Source of the DNA: a virus
Lineage: Duplodnaviria; Caudoviricetes
IMG/VR virus record: IMGVR_UViG_3300027914_001343
Span: 32,001-96,000 of that record
Length of the DNA stretch: 64,000 bases
Reading direction: 5' to 3' (one strand)
Shown here one piece after another: positions 31,232-44,851 of this stretch. Within the stretch, counting starts at the first letter, position 1, and each line of letters opens with the position of its first letter. A program made the position numbers and the translations under genes. A model generated the notes under the pieces. It ran no database searches, was not told the DNA's origin, and worked only from the letters and a program-made list of their open reading frames with translations.

Positions 31232-31573
31232 ATGGAAATTGATAATTACCAGACCGGACTTTCTAACCTTCGGTACTATACTGATTCTTTTCGGCAGGTA
31301 ATTGAGGATCACTTGGCAGTCATTCTCTATGCTGGTAACACCACGGTGGCTAATGTAGATCCGTCAGAAGCGTACCATTATGAGAATGACTTTTATGGAT
31401 TGCTTTTCCATAAGAACATCCCTAGCCACCTACATTGGGTTGTGCTTCGGATGAATGGATTGCATTGTCCTACTGAGGCTACTCGAGAACTTAAGCAGAT
31501 TTATATTCCTGACCCAGCAGTTATTGAGAGGCTTGATAGCACTAACTCTGCCACGTCGTCTATGTCGCTCTGA
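31232..31573 (+). CDS. conserved small protein, possibly a LysM-like baseplate wedge (T4 gp53/P2 X-like)
   Basis: 'LHWVVLRMNGL..P......IYIPD' pattern. GAGGGG SD. Confidence 0.5.
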   Translation: MEIDNYQTGLSNLRYYTDSFRQVIEDHLAVILYAGNTTVANVDPSEAYHYENDFYGLLFHKNIPSHLHWVVLRMNGLHCPTEATRELKQIYIPDPAVIERLDSTNSATSSMSL

Positions 31574-31622
31574 CGTGTATCATTCAATGGGTAGTTTGTG
31601 TAATTTTTTAGGGGGTTCTATC

Positions 31623-32369
31623 GTGCGACAATTTATGTTTAAAAATCCTGGTCATGTGAAACGCCGAGAGTCGTTGCCGGTCGGACAAGGTCTTTTTGAT
31701 CTTTATGCCAGTAATGGCAAGTTTGTTTTTTTAGCTGGTTCGGAAGCGATTTCTCCAGTGGTTACTTATTCCGGTTCTAGCGTTTTTACCAACAACATTA
31801 GTGGGATTCCGTCCAATTTTTTTGGTAAGGACCCTGACGGCAGGTCCTATCTTGATCTTCCCAGTTCCAGATTTTTACGTATTGATTTACGGTCGCTACC
31901 AATTCCGTCTTATGGGAATGTAAGTATCGTAATTGAGTATGCACCTAAGATTGGTTCTGCCGGTGGTTACTTGATGTTGCACGGTAGCGGAAATCCATCA
32001 AATATTAGTACTAATGGCATTTTACAATTACACTTAACATTTAATGGTGCCCAAACGACTGGTTATATAGGCGATTATGGCAAGGTCAACGCAATAACTG
32101 CTTCGACTACAATTAATCCCGGACAAAGGCATTGTATTACTATGTCCAGAGGGGCCGATAGTTACAGGTATTTTTCTATATCTAAAGACAAGGTTTCTTG
32201 GTCCCGCTTTGGTGGTAGTCCGGTTAGCCCATCTGCTACTATACTATCTAGTGGCGGGTTTCTGTTTATTGGTAGCCTCTCGGCGGGTGCCGCCGGTAAG
32301 CTTTATTCTATCCGGATTTTTGGTGGCGACCTTGGTGGCGACACAACCACATTGAACATGTTTAGGTAA
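31623..32369 (+). CDS. LamG/concanavalin-A-like beta-sandwich protein
   Basis: GTG 31623 after AGGGGG (or ATG 31635). C-terminal 'RHCITMSR...LFIG...GKLYSIRIF..DL' resembles LamG_3. Confidence 0.5.
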   Translation: MRQFMFKNPGHVKRRESLPVGQGLFDLYASNGKFVFLAGSEAISPVVTYSGSSVFTNNISGIPSNFFGKDPDGRSYLDLPSSRFLRIDLRSLPIPSYGNVSIVIEYAPKIGSAGGYLMLHGSGNPSNISTNGILQLHLTFNGAQTTGYIGDYGKVNAITASTTINPGQRHCITMSRGADSYRYFSISKDKVSWSRFGGSPVSPSATILSSGGFLFIGSLSAGAAGKLYSIRIFGGDLGGDTTTLNMFR

Positions 32370-32400
32370 AAAAAAAAACACACATTACTATTAGCCTATT

Positions 32401-32436
32401 CCCAGGGGGAGCCGAGGCTCCCCCTGGGTTTATGCC
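32401..32436. terminator. bidirectional hairpin terminator
   Basis: cccagggggagc-cgag-gctccccctggg followed by TTTATGC. Confidence 0.8.
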
Positions 32437-32439
32437 GTC

Positions 32440-33735
32440 TTACATGTTGTAACCGCCACTACCGCCACCACCGCGACCGAAGTTACCACCACCGCGACCG
32501 AAGTTACCACCACCACCTCCATTACGGATCTGGCGACGTACTTCTGTAGCGGCCATATAGGACTGCGGTTCACGACGACCGAAGTTACGGTTGTCAACTG
32601 GCAGACCACCAAAACTGCGCTCGTTGGCCCAAGCGCGGTTATTGCTCAAACGCTCCCGTATTTCAGGCTGACGAAGGAAGTCACTGTAGTTCTTCCGACC
32701 ATTGGAAGCAACAGTAGCTGCAACAGCACTTGTTGTTTCTGCTGCCTGGGCTGGCGCAGGATCACCAAGCGTGCGAAGCGGCGGAGCGACACGTTCAACT
32801 GCACGGCCGACAGCTGCGTTTTCTTGCACTCGTTGTTCTGCTTCTTCCACCTTCGAACGGCTTGCTTCGTTACCACTCAACATCGGCATGCTGCGCAGCT
32901 CTTTATCGAGCTCGCCGATATTTTCCAGGGTTTCGATCCAATCCATGTTAACTGCATATTCCTTGGTAAAGACACCATTGAACAGAGTAACAAGGTTTGC
33001 CAGCGGGCTGAGCACGTTGGCAAATGTCCAGAGCAGACATTCGGTACGCGGTGCTTTCCGGCTCATGGTCGGATAGGAATAACGATTCTGTTCGCCAATA
33101 CCAGGAATCATGTATTCCATCAGAGACATGATGGCAGTACGATCTTTCACACGAAGCTTAACGCCCCAGATTTCCTTGTCGGATTCTTTGAGTTCTTCAT
33201 ACAACGGGAAGGACACAATACCGACGCAGTCGTAGGTCTTGCCTTCGAGCACACCACCCTTGCGGATAAACATGTCGACGAAGCTCTTCGAGATGCGATT
33301 GGTTGGGGTCTTCTTGATGATGTTCTGCAAAGCCACCACAGTCTTTTCATCAATGTCCTTCACCACAGTCAAGAATTCAGACTGTGATGGATTCAGCTGG
33401 CTATGCTGAGCCGGAGAAGAACCAATAACCAGAAGCTCTTGCAGGATGTCTGCGAACAAGATGTTCAGATGCGAGGTCACACACAGACGGAAACGAGCAA
33501 GTACTTCCGATTCACCACCAACCAAAGATTCCTTGAGCGGATGGAAAGCCACACGCTGAGACCAGTCAGCAATACGCAATTGGTTCTCGTACGGCAAAAC
33601 CACGCGCTTGCTTTTGATCGTAAGCGGAATTTTCTCATCACCAGTGTCGATATCCAGACACTTGTCTTCGGTGATGCTTACTCCGGCAGCTTTCAGAACT
33701 GCTTCGTAAAAACTCAAAACATCCATAATTGCCAT
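32440..33735 (-). CDS. phiKZ gp70-like nucleus-cluster protein with RGG/FG-rich C-terminal tail
   Basis: 431 aa, directly downstream of the PicA-like gene. Tail GGNFGRGGGNFGRGGGG. Confidence 0.65.
   Translation of the reverse strand: MAIMDVLSFYEAVLKAAGVSITEDKCLDIDTGDEKIPLTIKSKRVVLPYENQLRIADWSQRVAFHPLKESLVGGESEVLARFRLCVTSHLNILFADILQELLVIGSSPAQHSQLNPSQSEFLTVVKDIDEKTVVALQNIIKKTPTNRISKSFVDMFIRKGGVLEGKTYDCVGIVSFPLYEELKESDKEIWGVKLRVKDRTAIMSLMEYMIPGIGEQNRYSYPTMSRKAPRTECLLWTFANVLSPLANLVTLFNGVFTKEYAVNMDWIETLENIGELDKELRSMPMLSGNEASRSKVEEAEQRVQENAAVGRAVERVAPPLRTLGDPAPAQAAETTSAVAATVASNGRKNYSDFLRQPEIRERLSNNRAWANERSFGGLPVDNRNFGRREPQSYMAATEVRRQIRNGGGGGNFGRGGGNFGRGGGGSGGYNM
32465..32514. repeat. 21-bp tandem repeat (2 copies plus a partial) encoding NFGRGGG
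   Basis: ccaccaccgcgaccgaagtta at 32465-32485 and 32486-32506. Confidence 0.9.
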
Positions 33736-33750
33736 TGTTTAAATCCTTGT

Positions 33751-35184
33751 TTAGAATTGATACTTCAATTCACCAGTTTCAGCGAACTGAGAGTTCGTGG
33801 TAAGAAGTTCATCAATAACGGCACCAAAAGAATCCGCCAGCTGCAGCGACAGGGAATCGTGTTCAGTAATAACCGGAGCGAACAACGCATCGCAAAACGT
33901 TGGCAACACGTAAGGCACTTGTTCGCTTCCTTCAATAGAAACCATGATTCTGGTATCGCCAAGCACATCAACAGACAAAGTCACAAAGTAATCAACTTCG
34001 TCGTTGTAGAACAAGTCACGCAAAACTTCCGTAGCAAAACGAATACGGAAAGTCTCAAGGTTCTCGGTCATGTCAATGTTACTGAAGGATTTGAAATCAC
34101 CAAGACGAACCTGACTCATACCCGTGCTATTGAGATTGGAAGCATCGAAATTCAGCTTTGTAATCCCAACATCCATCATGATTGCAGCCGCTGTCTGCGC
34201 CAGCACAGTTGCTACTTGAGTGTGGCGATCAGCAACGTGCCAGTACTCAGTAGTCCCGCTTTCATGGAAATTACTTGCGGCCCGTGTTGCGCCGCTCATA
34301 ATACCTGAGCTATAAACACCTGGGCTCATCGCGTGCGGATCAAGCTGGAGCAGCTCATGGATAGTAAAGTAATTCGTCGGAGTCGGGTCACCCCGCAAGT
34401 TCATCAAAGCAGACATGAACGGATCTTGGCTGACGAGAGGATCTCGCATCATTTTCCTGGCTTCGGAAAGAACGTCATTACGCCCTTGGCCAAAATCTTG
34501 GGTAGCTTGAGCGGAACGATAACCTTCAAACACTTGCGCAGCATAACCACTAGCCACACTGTTTTGACGGCGGGACTTCATCGGAGTATTCCGAATAACG
34601 TTCCGCATATCCAACATACCGCCAGGAAGTTCGCCGAGTTCTTGTCGCGTCATCACGCTGTAAATATCTTGCGGTCGAATAGCGAACTCATTGGAACCGG
34701 AATTGATGCCACTCCAGTTGTTGTTAGCCAGGACATGGCTGTTGTCTCGCACAGTCAAATAACGCTGGCGACCAAGCGGAGTTTCGGCAATAGTCTCACG
34801 CGACTGGATGGTGGAGTTGATGTAAAATTCCATCCGTGGGTCGAGTGTACCATTCATGCTGACGCCGAAGTGATCACTATAACCAAGGATCGTCTGAACA
34901 CGCGTGCTGAAATCAGAGACATCCTGAAGCTCGAGCATGAAGCGCAAACGACGTTCGCCCCAACCGCCGATGATACCGATTTCAGATTCCGGTTGTGCAC
35001 TCGGGCAAACAAGGCGATTAGCAACTCCAGCCAATGTATTGGCAGTAATCTGACCAGTACGATCAATAACTTCTGCCAGCGCATTCATCCCGTCATGATC
35101 GAGAATCGATTGGTAGGGGCGACGATACTGCTTGTTATACGTGCCAGTTTCGATCACGACGAATTTAGTTACGCGAATTGTCAT
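33751..35184 (-). CDS. picA: phage-nucleus protein import factor PicA/Imp1 (phiKZ gp69-like)
   Basis: Lies between the gp68-like and gp70-like genes. N-terminal 'ETGTYNKQYRRPY' and 'GWGERRLRFML'. ATG 35184 with GGAGG SD. Confidence 0.7.
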   Translation of the reverse strand: MTIRVTKFVVIETGTYNKQYRRPYQSILDHDGMNALAEVIDRTGQITANTLAGVANRLVCPSAQPESEIGIIGGWGERRLRFMLELQDVSDFSTRVQTILGYSDHFGVSMNGTLDPRMEFYINSTIQSRETIAETPLGRQRYLTVRDNSHVLANNNWSGINSGSNEFAIRPQDIYSVMTRQELGELPGGMLDMRNVIRNTPMKSRRQNSVASGYAAQVFEGYRSAQATQDFGQGRNDVLSEARKMMRDPLVSQDPFMSALMNLRGDPTPTNYFTIHELLQLDPHAMSPGVYSSGIMSGATRAASNFHESGTTEYWHVADRHTQVATVLAQTAAAIMMDVGITKLNFDASNLNSTGMSQVRLGDFKSFSNIDMTENLETFRIRFATEVLRDLFYNDEVDYFVTLSVDVLGDTRIMVSIEGSEQVPYVLPTFCDALFAPVITEHDSLSLQLADSFGAVIDELLTTNSQFAETGELKYQF

Positions 35185-36736
35185 TGCTATATTTCCTCCG
35201 TTCTGCAATTTCAATTACCAGCTCAGCCAGCTTGATTTTAATGTCCTGCGGTACAGCAAAACGCATGCTCTGGACACCTGCTTCATTGGGATTCACTTCA
35301 TTAATCCACGCACGAGGAAGTGTAAGACGCCAGTCATGATGACTCACCAGCGTCTCCATTTCTTCGATAGCTTGCACAGCGTGGTTCTTTTGTTTAAGCC
35401 TTTCGGCCTTTCTTGACTTCCGAATGAATGGATAAAGAAGATCGAGCTTCTCTACCATTTCACGAGGAATTCGTGCGCGTGTTTCCACACCAAACATTGC
35501 TAGCTCTTCACTGCTTTGTATTGTTTTAGCGGTTGCCACAGCAGCTAGTTCGGGGAAACCCCAATGCCACAGAACAGCCTGCGTAATACCAAGCATAGTC
35601 AAGACACAGCTCTTGCTGATGTAGTAGATGCCGCGCGGCGGAATTACATCTGCGGTAACCCACTGTGCAAGCGTTAGCTGAACATCCTGAATTTCTTCAG
35701 TAGCTAGAGCTTGAACAGATGCAAGGCTTTCACGAACCAAGCTTTCAGGAATGTCAGGCGCAATCCGCTTTGCGGCTTCCATACTGTAGTTCTTGACGTA
35801 GTGTTCGATTACCGAGATATCACCTTCCGGGATTTCTTGGCGGGCTTTATAACCTTCCAACTTCGAAAGATTGTTTTCACCCTCGCCACCATCCGGAACA
35901 ATCTTGGGACTCACTGTCCCCATGAATTGCCCGTCGGTTCCTTTGATTTTCTGGACTACGTACCGGTACGCCGATGTAACCAAATGAGGTTCGTTCGGAT
36001 TACCACTTACGTCACCTGGGCCAATACGTCGAACAATCACCAGCGCCAGCACCCATGTAGGATAGTTCTCGGAAGAAATCCCACCGAGGATAGCGGACGT
36101 GTTGGCTTTCTCGCGCCCAAGAAGGCCCTCGATATAAATACGAAGACGCTCGAGTGGCTGACTGTAATCGCCTGTTTGGAAACCTTCGTAAAGATTTGTC
36201 TGAACAAGCAGTTGGAAAGCGTAATATTCTTTCCAGACCGTACCTGTTTCTCGATGGGTCTGCGCGATAAACTCACCCCAGACTGGGAGTACCGGACGCA
36301 GCAAAACAGCCAGTGTCACCAGACGTCGATAATCTTCTCGCACGTAAGTACGATCGCGTGTCCCTACCAAAACTTCTTCTGAGCTAAACTCATTAATGAA
36401 ACCTTCCGGAATAAGAACATTGCAACGCAAGAAGACATGATCGAAGACATCTTCGAAAGGATGCAGTTCATAAAGCCGCTTGAGGATTGGCCTGATAGTC
36501 TGCATGAGCACAACTTGATCAGATACTGCGCTTTCAAACACTTCCTTGATTTCGCAATAGATGTCAAAAATTTCTTTCTGTTTTGTTTCGGGGAGACTGG
36601 CCCAAAAGCTATTGATCTCATTAAACATGTTTGCCTCGGCGGTTCTTGCTTTTTCGAGGAAACGCATGGACCAGGTAATTTCAGCTTTCCCGTGCCGAAC
36701 TACACAAGTACCACTATCCTTGTTTTCTAAGAGCAT
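35165..36736 (-). CDS. non-virion RNAP promoter-specificity (sigma-like) subunit (phiKZ gp68-like)
   Basis: 523 aa, synteny, and a leader and early promoter shared with the nvRNAP beta gene. Confidence 0.7.
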   Translation of the reverse strand: MLLENKDSGTCVVRHGKAEITWSMRFLEKARTAEANMFNEINSFWASLPETKQKEIFDIYCEIKEVFESAVSDQVVLMQTIRPILKRLYELHPFEDVFDHVFLRCNVLIPEGFINEFSSEEVLVGTRDRTYVREDYRRLVTLAVLLRPVLPVWGEFIAQTHRETGTVWKEYYAFQLLVQTNLYEGFQTGDYSQPLERLRIYIEGLLGREKANTSAILGGISSENYPTWVLALVIVRRIGPGDVSGNPNEPHLVTSAYRYVVQKIKGTDGQFMGTVSPKIVPDGGEGENNLSKLEGYKARQEIPEGDISVIEHYVKNYSMEAAKRIAPDIPESLVRESLASVQALATEEIQDVQLTLAQWVTADVIPPRGIYYISKSCVLTMLGITQAVLWHWGFPELAAVATAKTIQSSEELAMFGVETRARIPREMVEKLDLLYPFIRKSRKAERLKQKNHAVQAIEEMETLVSHHDWRLTLPRAWINEVNPNEAGVQSMRFAVPQDIKIKLAELVIEIAERRKYSNDNSRN

Positions 36737-36866: not shown

Positions 36867-37601
36867 TTAATACGGAAGATCCTCTTCAAAATTGTCAAAG
36901 CCGCCGCCAGCAGGTTTGGTGGATTCACCGCCGCGATTACCGCCGCCCTGATAACCACCGCCGCGGTTGCCACCATTACCACCGCCATTGCGGTTGTTGA
37001 ATTCGCGCGGTTCCGGTTCCTTGTATTCAGTAATCAGCAGATGCGGAATCATTGCCTGAATGAGCTTCACCCAAGCGCGAGCGAACATGACAGATACTTC
37101 GCCTTCAGACAACTGTTCGCCAGTGCCGTGATAGAAGACATGGAATTCGTCGGTTCCGAAACAGAACTTGATTGCGGTGCGCTTGTACTTGGTGACAGTA
37201 ATCCAGACACGACCCTTCGCGTCTTTGCCGACCAGGATTTCGGTATCGTTGACGAGACCTTCCGGCTTACCACCGCCCGGCTTGAAGTTCGGACGCTTGT
37301 TTTCGATCTTGAATTTGATTTCCGGCTTTTCTTCTGTCGGACGGAACGCACACGCCTGCTCGATCATGTTGGTAATGGCAATGGCCACACTCGCGTTGAT
37401 GCGGGCACTGATAGCACCCTGGTCGCGTTCAGCTTCAATGCCGTTGTAGACAACAATGCGCGGGTTGTTGTCGTAGATATTGATCATCAGAGAGGCATTC
37501 TTGCCTTCGCTGTTCTTGGTGTAGAGCTTGAGCTTCTGATCGTCCAGAGCATTTTTCTTGCGTTGCGGACGATTGCTGTTATTACCATTAAAGCCAGCCA
37601 T
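36867..37601 (-). CDS. chmC: nucleus-associated RNA-binding protein ChmC-like (phiKZ gp67 position)
   Basis: Immediately upstream of the gp68-like gene. Beta-rich core, N/G/RGG-rich disordered tail ending FDNFEEDLPY, highly biased codons. Confidence 0.6.
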   Translation of the reverse strand: MAGFNGNNSNRPQRKKNALDDQKLKLYTKNSEGKNASLMINIYDNNPRIVVYNGIEAERDQGAISARINASVAIAITNMIEQACAFRPTEEKPEIKFKIENKRPNFKPGGGKPEGLVNDTEILVGKDAKGRVWITVTKYKRTAIKFCFGTDEFHVFYHGTGEQLSEGEVSVMFARAWVKLIQAMIPHLLITEYKEPEPREFNNRNGGGNGGNRGGGYQGGGNRGGESTKPAGGGFDNFEEDLPY

Positions 37602-37652
37602 GATTAATTTCCTCGTGAAGTCGTACAACAAATGTACGGGATGTGTAAAAAT

Positions 37653-42928: not shown

Positions 42929-44851
42929 TCAGCGGCTGTAGTGACGGCCGTTGTAAACACCGAAGGTACGGGAAGCACCACCGCGACCGAAGTTGTTGCT
43001 GAAGACGCCGGACGGAGTCGAGCTCATCATCATGTTGCGGGCGAAGCTGCTGGTGGAACGCTGAGTGCCTTGGATGTCGCCGAAGTTCTGGACCAGAGGA
43101 GCATGGAACTTCGAAGCCGCGAACGCCTGAGCGATTGCACCCATCTGCACCGGGTTGAAGGTAATGCGACGCTGCCAGCCTTCGAAGACGGCGGACGGGC
43201 ACAGATGCTGGATGATCTGGCGACGACGGCTCAGGTGCACCTTCACGTCGTTCGTTTCGTTCACCATGGTTTCGCTGAATTCAGCGATGGTTTCCGGATT
43301 GCGATCGCCGGTCAGGTTCGCTACCGCGAGGTAGTCGAAGTGCGCCAGAGACTTCTTGGTGCCGTCACTGAAATGGCCCTTGTAGATACGGGCGGTTTCC
43401 AGTGCAATTGGCTGGGTCGGGTCGTAGAACTTGCTGAAGTTGCCACCGGTCAGTGCATCCATGGAAGCCACGAAGTATTCGACGGCGTCCGGACGGTTTT
43501 GAGCCAGCGGGATCAGCAGACCGGACATCCAGGATTGCGGACCAACTTCATCCACATCGGCCTGGATAACCAGACCCGGATGCATGAAGGCCGAAACCAG
43601 GTTCACCAGTTCGTTCGGCTGCACGTTCAGAGCAGAACCCCAACCATTCGGGTTCTTTTCCAGGTTGGCTTCGTAACCGATGCCGCCGATGTCATGCATG
43701 TCGGAACCATTCATGCTGCGCGGCAGGAACGCACGCACCCAGTTGTTGTTGTCGGACAGGACGTTCACGCTGGCCAGGGCCAGGAGATAGGCATTGAACG
43801 AAGCAGCATCTTCGGTATCCAGCCGGGTAATCACGAAGGACGGCAGGTACAGTTGGGTCGGGATCTGGGTATTCGGCGCTTGCAGCTGGTACGGATTGGA
43901 CGGTTCTGCAGCCGGGCTCCAGATCAGATCCATGTAACCGTACAGTGCAGTGATGCGCTTCATGCGATCAGCGGCGATACCGGTAGTGTTCTGGTTCTTC
44001 GGACGAGCGTAGAGCTCAACACAAACATCACCACGAACAGCAGAGCCGACTTCATCGAAGACATCGTCATTGCCGAAGGTGATGCGTGTGGACAGCGTGG
44101 CATCTTCCTTGGCATCCAGGATGCAAACATCCGGCTCACCGGCGACCTGCGAAATGGCGACGTGAATGGAAGCCAGGGCATTGGCGGCGGTAGAACGAGT
44201 GAGGTCGTCATCGGCGAAGTTGTAGTCGGCCGGGATCACGCAAGCATCGCAATCCAGGAAACCGGCGTTCTGGAAGTTCGCCATGAAGGTTTCGAAGATC
44301 ACTTCACGCATTGCGTCGTCGTAGGCATCGGACGCGAACTGCGGGATTTCAACTTGCTGACCATTGATGGTCTCGACCTTGGCAGCAAAGGCTTGGGTGG
44401 AGCCAGCCAGCAGCAGGGTGTGGACGCCGACGCCCAGTTCCGGTTCTTGTACACGGAAAGCAGCAACCATAACAGCCGAGATTGCGATGCGGCTGTTATT
44501 GTTCATGTCGATCGGGATCAGGCGAATTTCGTAATCCGGGGAAGCAGACTCGTACTGCTTCTTCAGGGCAGCCATCATCTTGACGACGGCTTCGCCAGAG
44601 GTGTTGCGGGACAGCGGAGCAGTGGTGGAACGGCAGCCGCTGATGAAGGAATGCTGGTGACGTTGTTGCATTTTAACTTCCTTGTTTTTGGGTTGTTGTT
44701 TGGTTTGGGAAACAGCTTCTTGTGCGGCTGCCGTACTTGCGGCACGCACACGGTTTTTCTGACTGGCTGCAAGCTTGGAGGCTACACCAGCATTCGCCAT
44801 TGCCGAAGCCATAGCGGTTTGTTCTTTTCCATCTTTACTGTGATCAATCAT
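42929..44851 (-). CDS. chmA: chimallin, major phage nuclear shell protein (phiKZ gp54-like)
   Basis: 640 aa, immediately upstream of nvRNAP beta'-N. Early promoter, extreme codon bias, 'GYMDLIW', 'DIGGIGYE' and 'FDYLAV' segments. Confidence 0.8.
   Translation of the reverse strand: MIDHSKDGKEQTAMASAMANAGVASKLAASQKNRVRAASTAAAQEAVSQTKQQPKNKEVKMQQRHQHSFISGCRSTTAPLSRNTSGEAVVKMMAALKKQYESASPDYEIRLIPIDMNNNSRIAISAVMVAAFRVQEPELGVGVHTLLLAGSTQAFAAKVETINGQQVEIPQFASDAYDDAMREVIFETFMANFQNAGFLDCDACVIPADYNFADDDLTRSTAANALASIHVAISQVAGEPDVCILDAKEDATLSTRITFGNDDVFDEVGSAVRGDVCVELYARPKNQNTTGIAADRMKRITALYGYMDLIWSPAAEPSNPYQLQAPNTQIPTQLYLPSFVITRLDTEDAASFNAYLLALASVNVLSDNNNWVRAFLPRSMNGSDMHDIGGIGYEANLEKNPNGWGSALNVQPNELVNLVSAFMHPGLVIQADVDEVGPQSWMSGLLIPLAQNRPDAVEYFVASMDALTGGNFSKFYDPTQPIALETARIYKGHFSDGTKKSLAHFDYLAVANLTGDRNPETIAEFSETMVNETNDVKVHLSRRRQIIQHLCPSAVFEGWQRRITFNPVQMGAIAQAFAASKFHAPLVQNFGDIQGTQRSTSSFARNMMMSSTPSGVFSNNFGRGGASRTFGVYNGRHYSR

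Follow-up and report, generated by a model that had tools for sequence, protein, structure and literature searches.

A possible tether to the chimallin shell in the disordered tail of a gp70-like protein of a nucleus-forming jumbo phage

In this study, a window of 64,000 nucleotides from the genome of a nucleus-forming jumbo phage (virus record of 149 kb) was analyzed with respect to its gp70-like gene (positions 32440-33735, minus strand). The most likely reading of the results, which we put forward tentatively, is that the disordered tail of the encoded protein is a tether to the chimallin (ChmA) shell: ChmA would be bound through conserved motifs of the tail, whose variable, sticky end would loosely track the ChmA tail. 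The motif NFGRGG, repeated at the end of the gp70-like tail and present also near the C-terminus of ChmA, looks like a recent, lineage-specific, slippage-expanded spelling and not like a conserved docking motif.

Organization and relatives of the gp70-like protein

The gp70-like protein consists of 431 amino acids and matches phrog_3520 (E=1.6e-68). Judging by homology, it is a new member of the family that includes PhiKZ gp70, PhiPA3 gp64 and Goslar gp173. A tblastn search with the protein retrieved 199 chimallivirus records, with alignments spanning residues 1 to approximately 320 only; the matches include PhiPA3 (064, E=3e-26), PhiKZ (070, E=6e-21) and Goslar 173. The identity amounts to 24–28% with the proteins of these model phages and to 41% with that of the nearest isolate, Burkholderia phage FLC9. 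A profile search with the family gave 1933 matches at E≤1e-3. In IMG/VR, no related locus was found with the single protein as the query, and 9 loci were found with an alignment as the query.

The gene is located directly downstream of a gene for a PicA/Imp1 homologue (33751-35214, minus strand; phrog_3141, E=5.2e-86; BLASTP E=1e-48 to PhiKZ gp69), inside the chmA-to-nvRNAP block, with chmA placed approximately 9 kb upstream. The first-pass annotation, which had described a gp70-like protein encoded beside PicA, was confirmed on both counts. The same block contains a homologue of ChmC/Imp6 (36867-37631, minus strand; BLASTP E=2e-17 to PhiPA3 gp61). Among the relatives of the gp70-like protein, PhiPA3 gp64 localises to the nuclear shell, is a ChmA/RecA proximity-labelling interactor and is present in ChmB pull-downs (PMC10643120). 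PhiKZ gp70 is given as a nuclear, not a shell-bound, protein and was not recovered together with Imp1 (bioRxiv 10.1101/2024.03.27.586873), and Goslar gp173 was employed as a known nuclear-localised carrier (PMC13648698).

The AF2 model of the gp70-like protein (with 137 homologues) comprises a confident N-domain of approximately 300 residues (residues 1-300, positions 32836-33735, minus strand; pLDDT >90 over residues 1-290), followed by a disordered tail of approximately 130 residues. Searches with the fold of the N-domain gave nothing at E≤1e-3 with Foldseek against the PDB, and no credible match with VIA (best Z of only 5.7) or in the ESM Atlas. The only conserved island of the otherwise disordered tail is formed by residues 345-381 (32593-32703, minus strand), which, on the grounds of conservation and complex prediction (see below), constitute the predicted ChmA-docking segment. 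This island carries two family-wide short motifs, G346..D352-F353..P357 and R367-A-W369, in which G346, D352-F353, P357 and W369 are the conserved positions. Across 137 sequences, conservation reaches at least 90% at G346 and P357, and both motifs are recognizable by eye in the tails of PhiKZ, PhiPA3, Goslar and RTH11.

The translation further contains SFGG (residues 374-377) and NFGRREP (residues 384-390) at positions 32566-32616 (minus strand), and a Gly-rich tail end (residues 405-431, positions 32443-32523, minus strand; pLDDT <50), in which NFGRGGG occurs twice (residues 411-424) and which terminates with GGYNM. The doubled motif is encoded by a 21-bp tandem repeat (32465-32514), for which TRF reports 2.4 copies with 100% matches. 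In total, four FG are found within approximately 60 residues of the tail, with Arg and Glu in the spacers. An RGG box consists of two or more RGG that are 0–4 residues apart, and the RGG-GNFG-RGG at residues 414-423 has this spacing (RGG-x4-RGG).

Several observations concern the surroundings of the gene. A G+C-rich hairpin, read from the sequence at 32401-32428 between the convergent genes, follows immediately after the gp70-like stop codon and was not called by a simple terminator scan. In a wastewater strain variant its left arm is altered and, within the 30 letters available, so are the matching right-arm bases; the comparison suggests that the stem has been kept through compensatory change. 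In relatives, gp70 is followed by a small conserved gene on the opposite strand, which here occupies positions 31232-31570 (43% identity to FLC9 gp371, E=2e-35). Between this small gene and the gp70-like gene there is an extra ORF (part of 31455-32369, plus strand), with no Pfam or PHROG match, that is missing at this position in FLC9, PhiKZ and PhiPA3. In every ChmC homologue examined (positions 36867-37010 of the window and related loci), a Gly/Asn-rich linker is followed by an acidic tip of the form D/E-D/E-hydrophobic-P-aromatic, resembling the C-terminal tip of bacterial SSB. The ChmC tip has been published as an S/D/E-rich cluster, in a paper whose main text has 0 occurrences of 'SSB' (PMC11077065). 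Sequences nearly identical to window positions 32300-33800 (mostly 95–99%, four runs) were found in wastewater metagenomes of several studies (2022–2025), and therefore this phage or close strains are widespread in sewage. The wastewater contigs break at the 21-bp repeat, and none spans 32488-32518.

NFGRGG and the tails of the two proteins

The chmA gene (42929-44851, minus strand) encodes a chimallin of 640 amino acids, which matches Pfam PF25677 (E=3.5e-35) and PDB entries 7sqt, 7sqq and 8fne (E=1e-20 to 5e-24). A homologue search with whole ChmA gave no matches, probably owing to low-complexity words, and the core alone gave 13. When aligned to the PhiPA3 PhuN tail, the C-terminal extension (residues 589-640, positions 42932-43087, minus strand; pLDDT <50 in the monomer model) is composed of a CTS1-like segment, a Gly/aromatic linker and a CTS2-like end. 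The C-terminus reads NNFGRGGASRTFGVYNGRHYSR, with NFGRGG (residues 620-625) placed 15 residues before the end. The published segments are CTS1 (590-611), linker (612-621) and CTS2 (622-631) (Laughlin et al. 2022, PMC9365700). In the alignment with the PhiPA3 shell protein, NFGRGG falls into the flexible CTS1-CTS2 linker, which was unresolved by cryo-EM (PMC9365700), and the final 11 residues match CTS2. Self-assembly in vitro is disrupted when the C-terminal segments of ChmA are deleted, and the tails attach to neighbours in trans (PMC9365700; PMC9938867); the C-terminal domain of ChmA receives CTS1 (PMC9365700). The supplementary tables of the latter paper list no residue-level CTS contacts.

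The first-pass annotation had reported that NFGRGG is repeated in the gp70-like tail and shared with the ChmA tail, that the repeat is a 21-bp tandem unit and that a 19-nt string occurs three times. All of this holds, as verified by translation, TRF and exact string matching (32466-32484, 32487-32505 and 42976-42994, the third copy encoding NFGRGG of ChmA on the minus strand). Shuffles lead to an expectation of 0 such matches. This random-DNA expectation overstates the surprise. Composition and codon bias account for most of the identity; the fair null is a pair of tails that are both rich in Gly, Arg, Phe and Asn and encoded with strong codon bias. The observed local alignment score of the window pair was matched by 5.6% of composition-preserving shuffles (p=0.056). 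Given the shared peptide, the probability of identical codons is approximately 0.007 with genome-average usage and approximately 0.03–0.06 with the usage of the two genes. The identity of the letters thus mostly reflects the shared composition and strong codon bias of both genes, and gene conversion, considered as an origin of the 19-nt identity, was rejected as not needed at the latter probability.

The exact motif turned out to be absent from related phages, an outcome that the first-pass annotation had named as a refutation of its proposal: FGRGG is present in 1 of 159 representatives of the gp70-like family and in 1 of 21 ChmA tails of the window's clade. RGG is likewise not conserved among homologues, occurring within the last 40 residues of 11 of the 159 representatives. 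An hhalign comparison of the ChmA C-extension with the gp70-like tail gave a Prob of 0.2% and E=0.38, equal to the reversed controls. A by-eye likeness of the tail motif to ChmA CTS1 (D-hydrophobic..R spacing), and to NTS in some phages, was dropped as it had no statistical support. A motif scan of the 149-kb record found two or more RGG/FG-G motifs only in ChmA, the gp70-like protein and ChmC, and, besides ChmC homologues, no credible similarly low-complexity C-termini were detected among 568 background ORFs of the record and 16 related loci. The ending R[ILMFWYV]$ was observed in 13 of 46 gp70-like proteins and 3 of 29 ChmA proteins, compared with 13 of the 568 background ORFs. Both the gp70-like protein and ChmA have G-x-Y-N near their ends.

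Co-variation of the two tails, which had been proposed as a check of their relationship, is suggested within the window's clade, and the family-wide signal proved non-specific. For the latter, gp70-like and ChmA proteins of 29 phages were paired. Tail composition was correlated between cognate pairs (z=4.8), but the composition of the gp70 tail was just as closely correlated with that of the ChmA core (z=4.4) and of the ChmA N-tail (z=5.0). A few lineages rich in Arg, Asp and Tyr drove the signal, through their Arg (r=0.91) and Asp (r=0.80) contents. As the core and the N-tail correlate as well, the signal is not C-tail-specific, and family-wide co-variation of composition was rejected as specific evidence. 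It is best described as a lineage-wide flavour of disordered shell-protein segments, not as evidence for C-tail mimicry. Order-level similarity over shuffles, summed across the 29 pairs, was weak (z=1.9).

Within the window's clade, local alignment scores of own and swapped pairs from 8 phages were compared by exact permutation. The gp70 tail and the ChmA C-tail scored higher in own than in swapped pairs (exact p=0.017, a value obtained with 8 related phages that fails strict multiple-test correction). The controls were non-significant (ChmA N-tail, 0.18; CTS1 region, 0.64; core pieces, 0.19–0.96). In FLC9, the tails match each other differently, with W/F-GGGA and GGGW in both proteins (shuffle p=0.012).

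The flavour of the tails was also inspected in RsoM3USA, FBKp24, SPLA10, Moabite and PCH45. In these five phages the gp70-like tail is of the Arg/Asp/Tyr mixed-charge type and the ChmA C-tail is Arg-rich (Arg/Asp/Tyr in RsoM3USA only); three of them (RsoM3USA, SPLA10 and PCH45) have a ChmA N-tail with abundant Arg and Glu/Asp. On these compositions, several disordered shell-protein segments share a lineage-specific flavour. The ChmC tail is still Gly/Asn-rich in all five.

Predicted docking on ChmA and competing explanations

One ESMFold2 complex prediction was performed with ChmA residues 70-588 (own tails removed) and the gp70-like tail (residues 345-431), alongside 3 controls. The complex scored 0.70 (median of 0.49, 0.80 and 0.70), compared with 0.01 for the best of the 3 controls. 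Among solved complexes, 58 of 80 attain this mark, as do 2 of 110 mismatched pairs; both rates are approximate, since own alignments were used. The runs share at least 10% of contacts, and the pLDDT of the partner is at least 45, its fold being uncertain. The confident interface joins tail residues 345-381 with ChmA residues 329-333, 368-376, 389-398, 406-425 and 516. All predicted ChmA contacts are situated inside the acetyltransferase-like C-terminal domain, including the region of the invariant G389; ChmA residues 329-425 (43577-43867, minus strand), with D387-I-G389..G392..E-A-N, represent the predicted docking surface. The stretch at window positions 43667-43693 (ChmA residues 387-395, D-I-G-x-x-G-x-E-A-N; G389 invariant in both alignments) is the most conserved of ChmA, and in the model it forms the centre of this surface.

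As far as a model can show, the prediction favours a gp70-like tail that binds the ChmA core in trans. Its score may in part reflect resemblance to structures already solved, in which ChmA cores carry trans-bound tail segments (7SQR and others). Modelling of the ChmA core with the NFGRGG peptide had been suggested by the first-pass annotation; for the tail modelled here, the confident interface is at residues 345-381, not at NFGRGG. The repeats lie outside this interface, which is no proof against a contact. The broader proposal, that the tail contacts the ChmA lattice, is in line with both the complex prediction and the within-clade pairing; NFGRGG as the contacting element is disfavoured by its uniqueness to this phage, by its linker position in ChmA and by the hhalign result.

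In the tether reading, the G..DF...P and R-x-W motifs would bind ChmA at its acetyltransferase-like C-terminal domain, beside the most conserved stretch of ChmA, as the model predicts. The remaining Gly/aromatic/Arg end would be a flexible, fast-evolving sticky segment, drifting together with the flexible C-terminal linker and end of ChmA, possibly via weak tail-tail or tail-groove contacts. In this phage the sticky end would have turned into NFGRGG and been doubled through slippage of the 21-bp unit.

The resemblance of the tails admits other explanations. It may be a coincidence, which we regard as rather unlikely: independent Gly/Arg/aromatic tails in highly expressed genes would share a hexamer, and the gp70 end, functionally unrelated to the ChmA tail, would serve as a spacer or as a generic patch of RGG type that binds nucleic acid. 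The shuffle and codon probabilities of the window pair (p=0.056 and approximately 0.03–0.06) are compatible with this, as are the restriction of NFGRGG to this phage in both protein families, the origin of the repeat by simple slippage, the lack of C-tail specificity in the family-wide co-variation and, from the general definition of RGG boxes, the RGG-x4-RGG spacing. It is at odds with the pair-specific similarity within the clade, where the controls were negative, with the confinement of such motifs to three shell-associated proteins of the 149-kb record, and with the FLC9 pair, which is again matched in a different spelling. The pairings within the clade (p=0.017) and in FLC9 (p=0.012) also speak for another reading, in which the NFGRGG repeats would mimic the ChmA tail, dock in the grooves for neighbour tails and insert gp70 into the lattice or open it near PicA. 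Such mimicry would agree with the identical hexapeptide in both tails, the G-x-Y-N near both ends and the need for the trans-binding ChmA C-terminal segments in self-assembly in vitro (PMC9365700; PMC9938867). We nevertheless consider it distinctly improbable: just one of the 159 gp70-like representatives, and one of the 21 ChmA tails from the clade, has FGRGG, the ChmA copy lies in the CTS1-CTS2 linker, with low pLDDT and not visible by cryo-EM, hhalign finds no tail-tail similarity, the window pair reaches only p=0.056 over shuffles, and the confident predicted interface excludes the repeats (contact being still possible).

Little credence is also given to the notion that the gp70-like tail is a cohesive low-complexity domain which, together with the ChmA and ChmC tails (and RNA), makes a condensate or nucleoporin-like selective layer at import/export sites. 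A nucleoporin-like FG/RGG tail had been raised at first pass. Across the family, the tails contain few charged residues and abundant P, Q, G, A, N and M, with [FWY]G enriched twofold (1.88 per 100 aa vs 0.92 in shuffles) and present within the last 40 residues of 121 of 159 representatives. Moreover, the disordered tail of ChmC drives RNA condensates in vitro (PMC11077065), the ChmA N-tail, ChmA C-tail and gp70 tail have a common lineage-specific flavour, and the gene adjoins PicA. Against this notion, several lineages have Arg/Asp/Tyr mixed-charge or Met/Gln-rich tails of no FG character. In the window protein itself there are only four FG in approximately 60 residues, with Arg/Glu spacers, few family representatives carry RGG (11 of 159), the shell has no known pore structure and PhiKZ gp70 was not co-purified with Imp1. 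In the searched literature, no paper with both 'phage nucleus' and 'FG-nu' was found. The lineage flavours (Met/Gln for the PhiKZ-like phages, aromatic-Gly/Arg for the present one, Arg/Asp/Tyr for the SPN3US-like group and for some Ralstonia phages) leave room for one further idea, the least probable of those weighed here. Within a chimallivirus lineage, both tails of ChmA (N and C) and that of the gp70-like protein might have a single flavour because these segments interact. The gp70-like protein, held on ChmA by its conserved motifs next to PicA, would then use its ChmA-like sticky end to bridge ChmA tails or compete with them, and so loosen the lattice locally or form a cohesive gate functionally analogous to FG-nucleoporins.

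The context of these findings is the passage of proteins and mRNA across the chimallin shell. The tether, if true, would account for how the gp64/gp70 family gets to the shell, and it would mean that proteins other than ChmA can insert themselves in the lattice via tail-like segments. The motif pair, being present also in PhiKZ, PhiPA3 and Goslar, provides a testable handle on a conserved family without an assigned role. The identity of NFGRGG is a minor, lineage-specific detail.

Comparison with known systems

The closest known counterparts are the phrog_3520 proteins PhiPA3 gp64, PhiKZ gp70, Goslar gp173 and 201phi2-1 gp126, which resemble the window protein in N-domain homology, in the position of the gene directly after PicA/Imp1 in the conserved ChmA-to-nvRNAP block, and in a disordered tail in which both short motifs recur. 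Members of this family are shell-associated (PhiPA3) or nuclear (PhiKZ, Goslar). They differ in the tail end, which is Gly/Arg/Phe with NFGRGG twice in the window protein, Met/Gln/Pro/Gly in PhiKZ-like phages and Arg/Asp/Tyr in SPN3US-like phages.

The cohesive domains of FG-nucleoporins and the RGG boxes of the hnRNP A1 type have in common with this tail end the aromatic-Gly and Arg-Gly-Gly stickers, the disordered Gly-rich context and the boundary of a nucleus-like compartment; in contrast to them, the window segment has only approximately 27 residues, and FG/RGG is not conserved in the family. ChmC (PhiPA3 gp61, PhiKZ gp67/Imp6) is, like the gp70-like protein, shell-associated, encoded in the same gene block and equipped with a Gly-rich disordered tail, which in this phage also contains RGG. 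Unlike the gp70-like protein, whose tail flavour varies by lineage, ChmC has a Whirly RNA-binding fold and a lineage-constant Asn/Gly-rich tail with an acidic tip.

Finally, the tail may be set beside CTS1/CTS2 of ChmA (Laughlin et al. 2022; Nieweglowska et al. 2023). The gp70-like tail differs from these segments in that it has no profile-level similarity to them, and the NFGRGG that it shares with ChmA lies in the linker missing from the cryo-EM structure. The two are alike in their Gly/aromatic make-up, in the frequent Arg + hydrophobic C-terminus and, if the complex model is right about the gp70-like tail, in being flexible extensions that attach to a ChmA core in trans.
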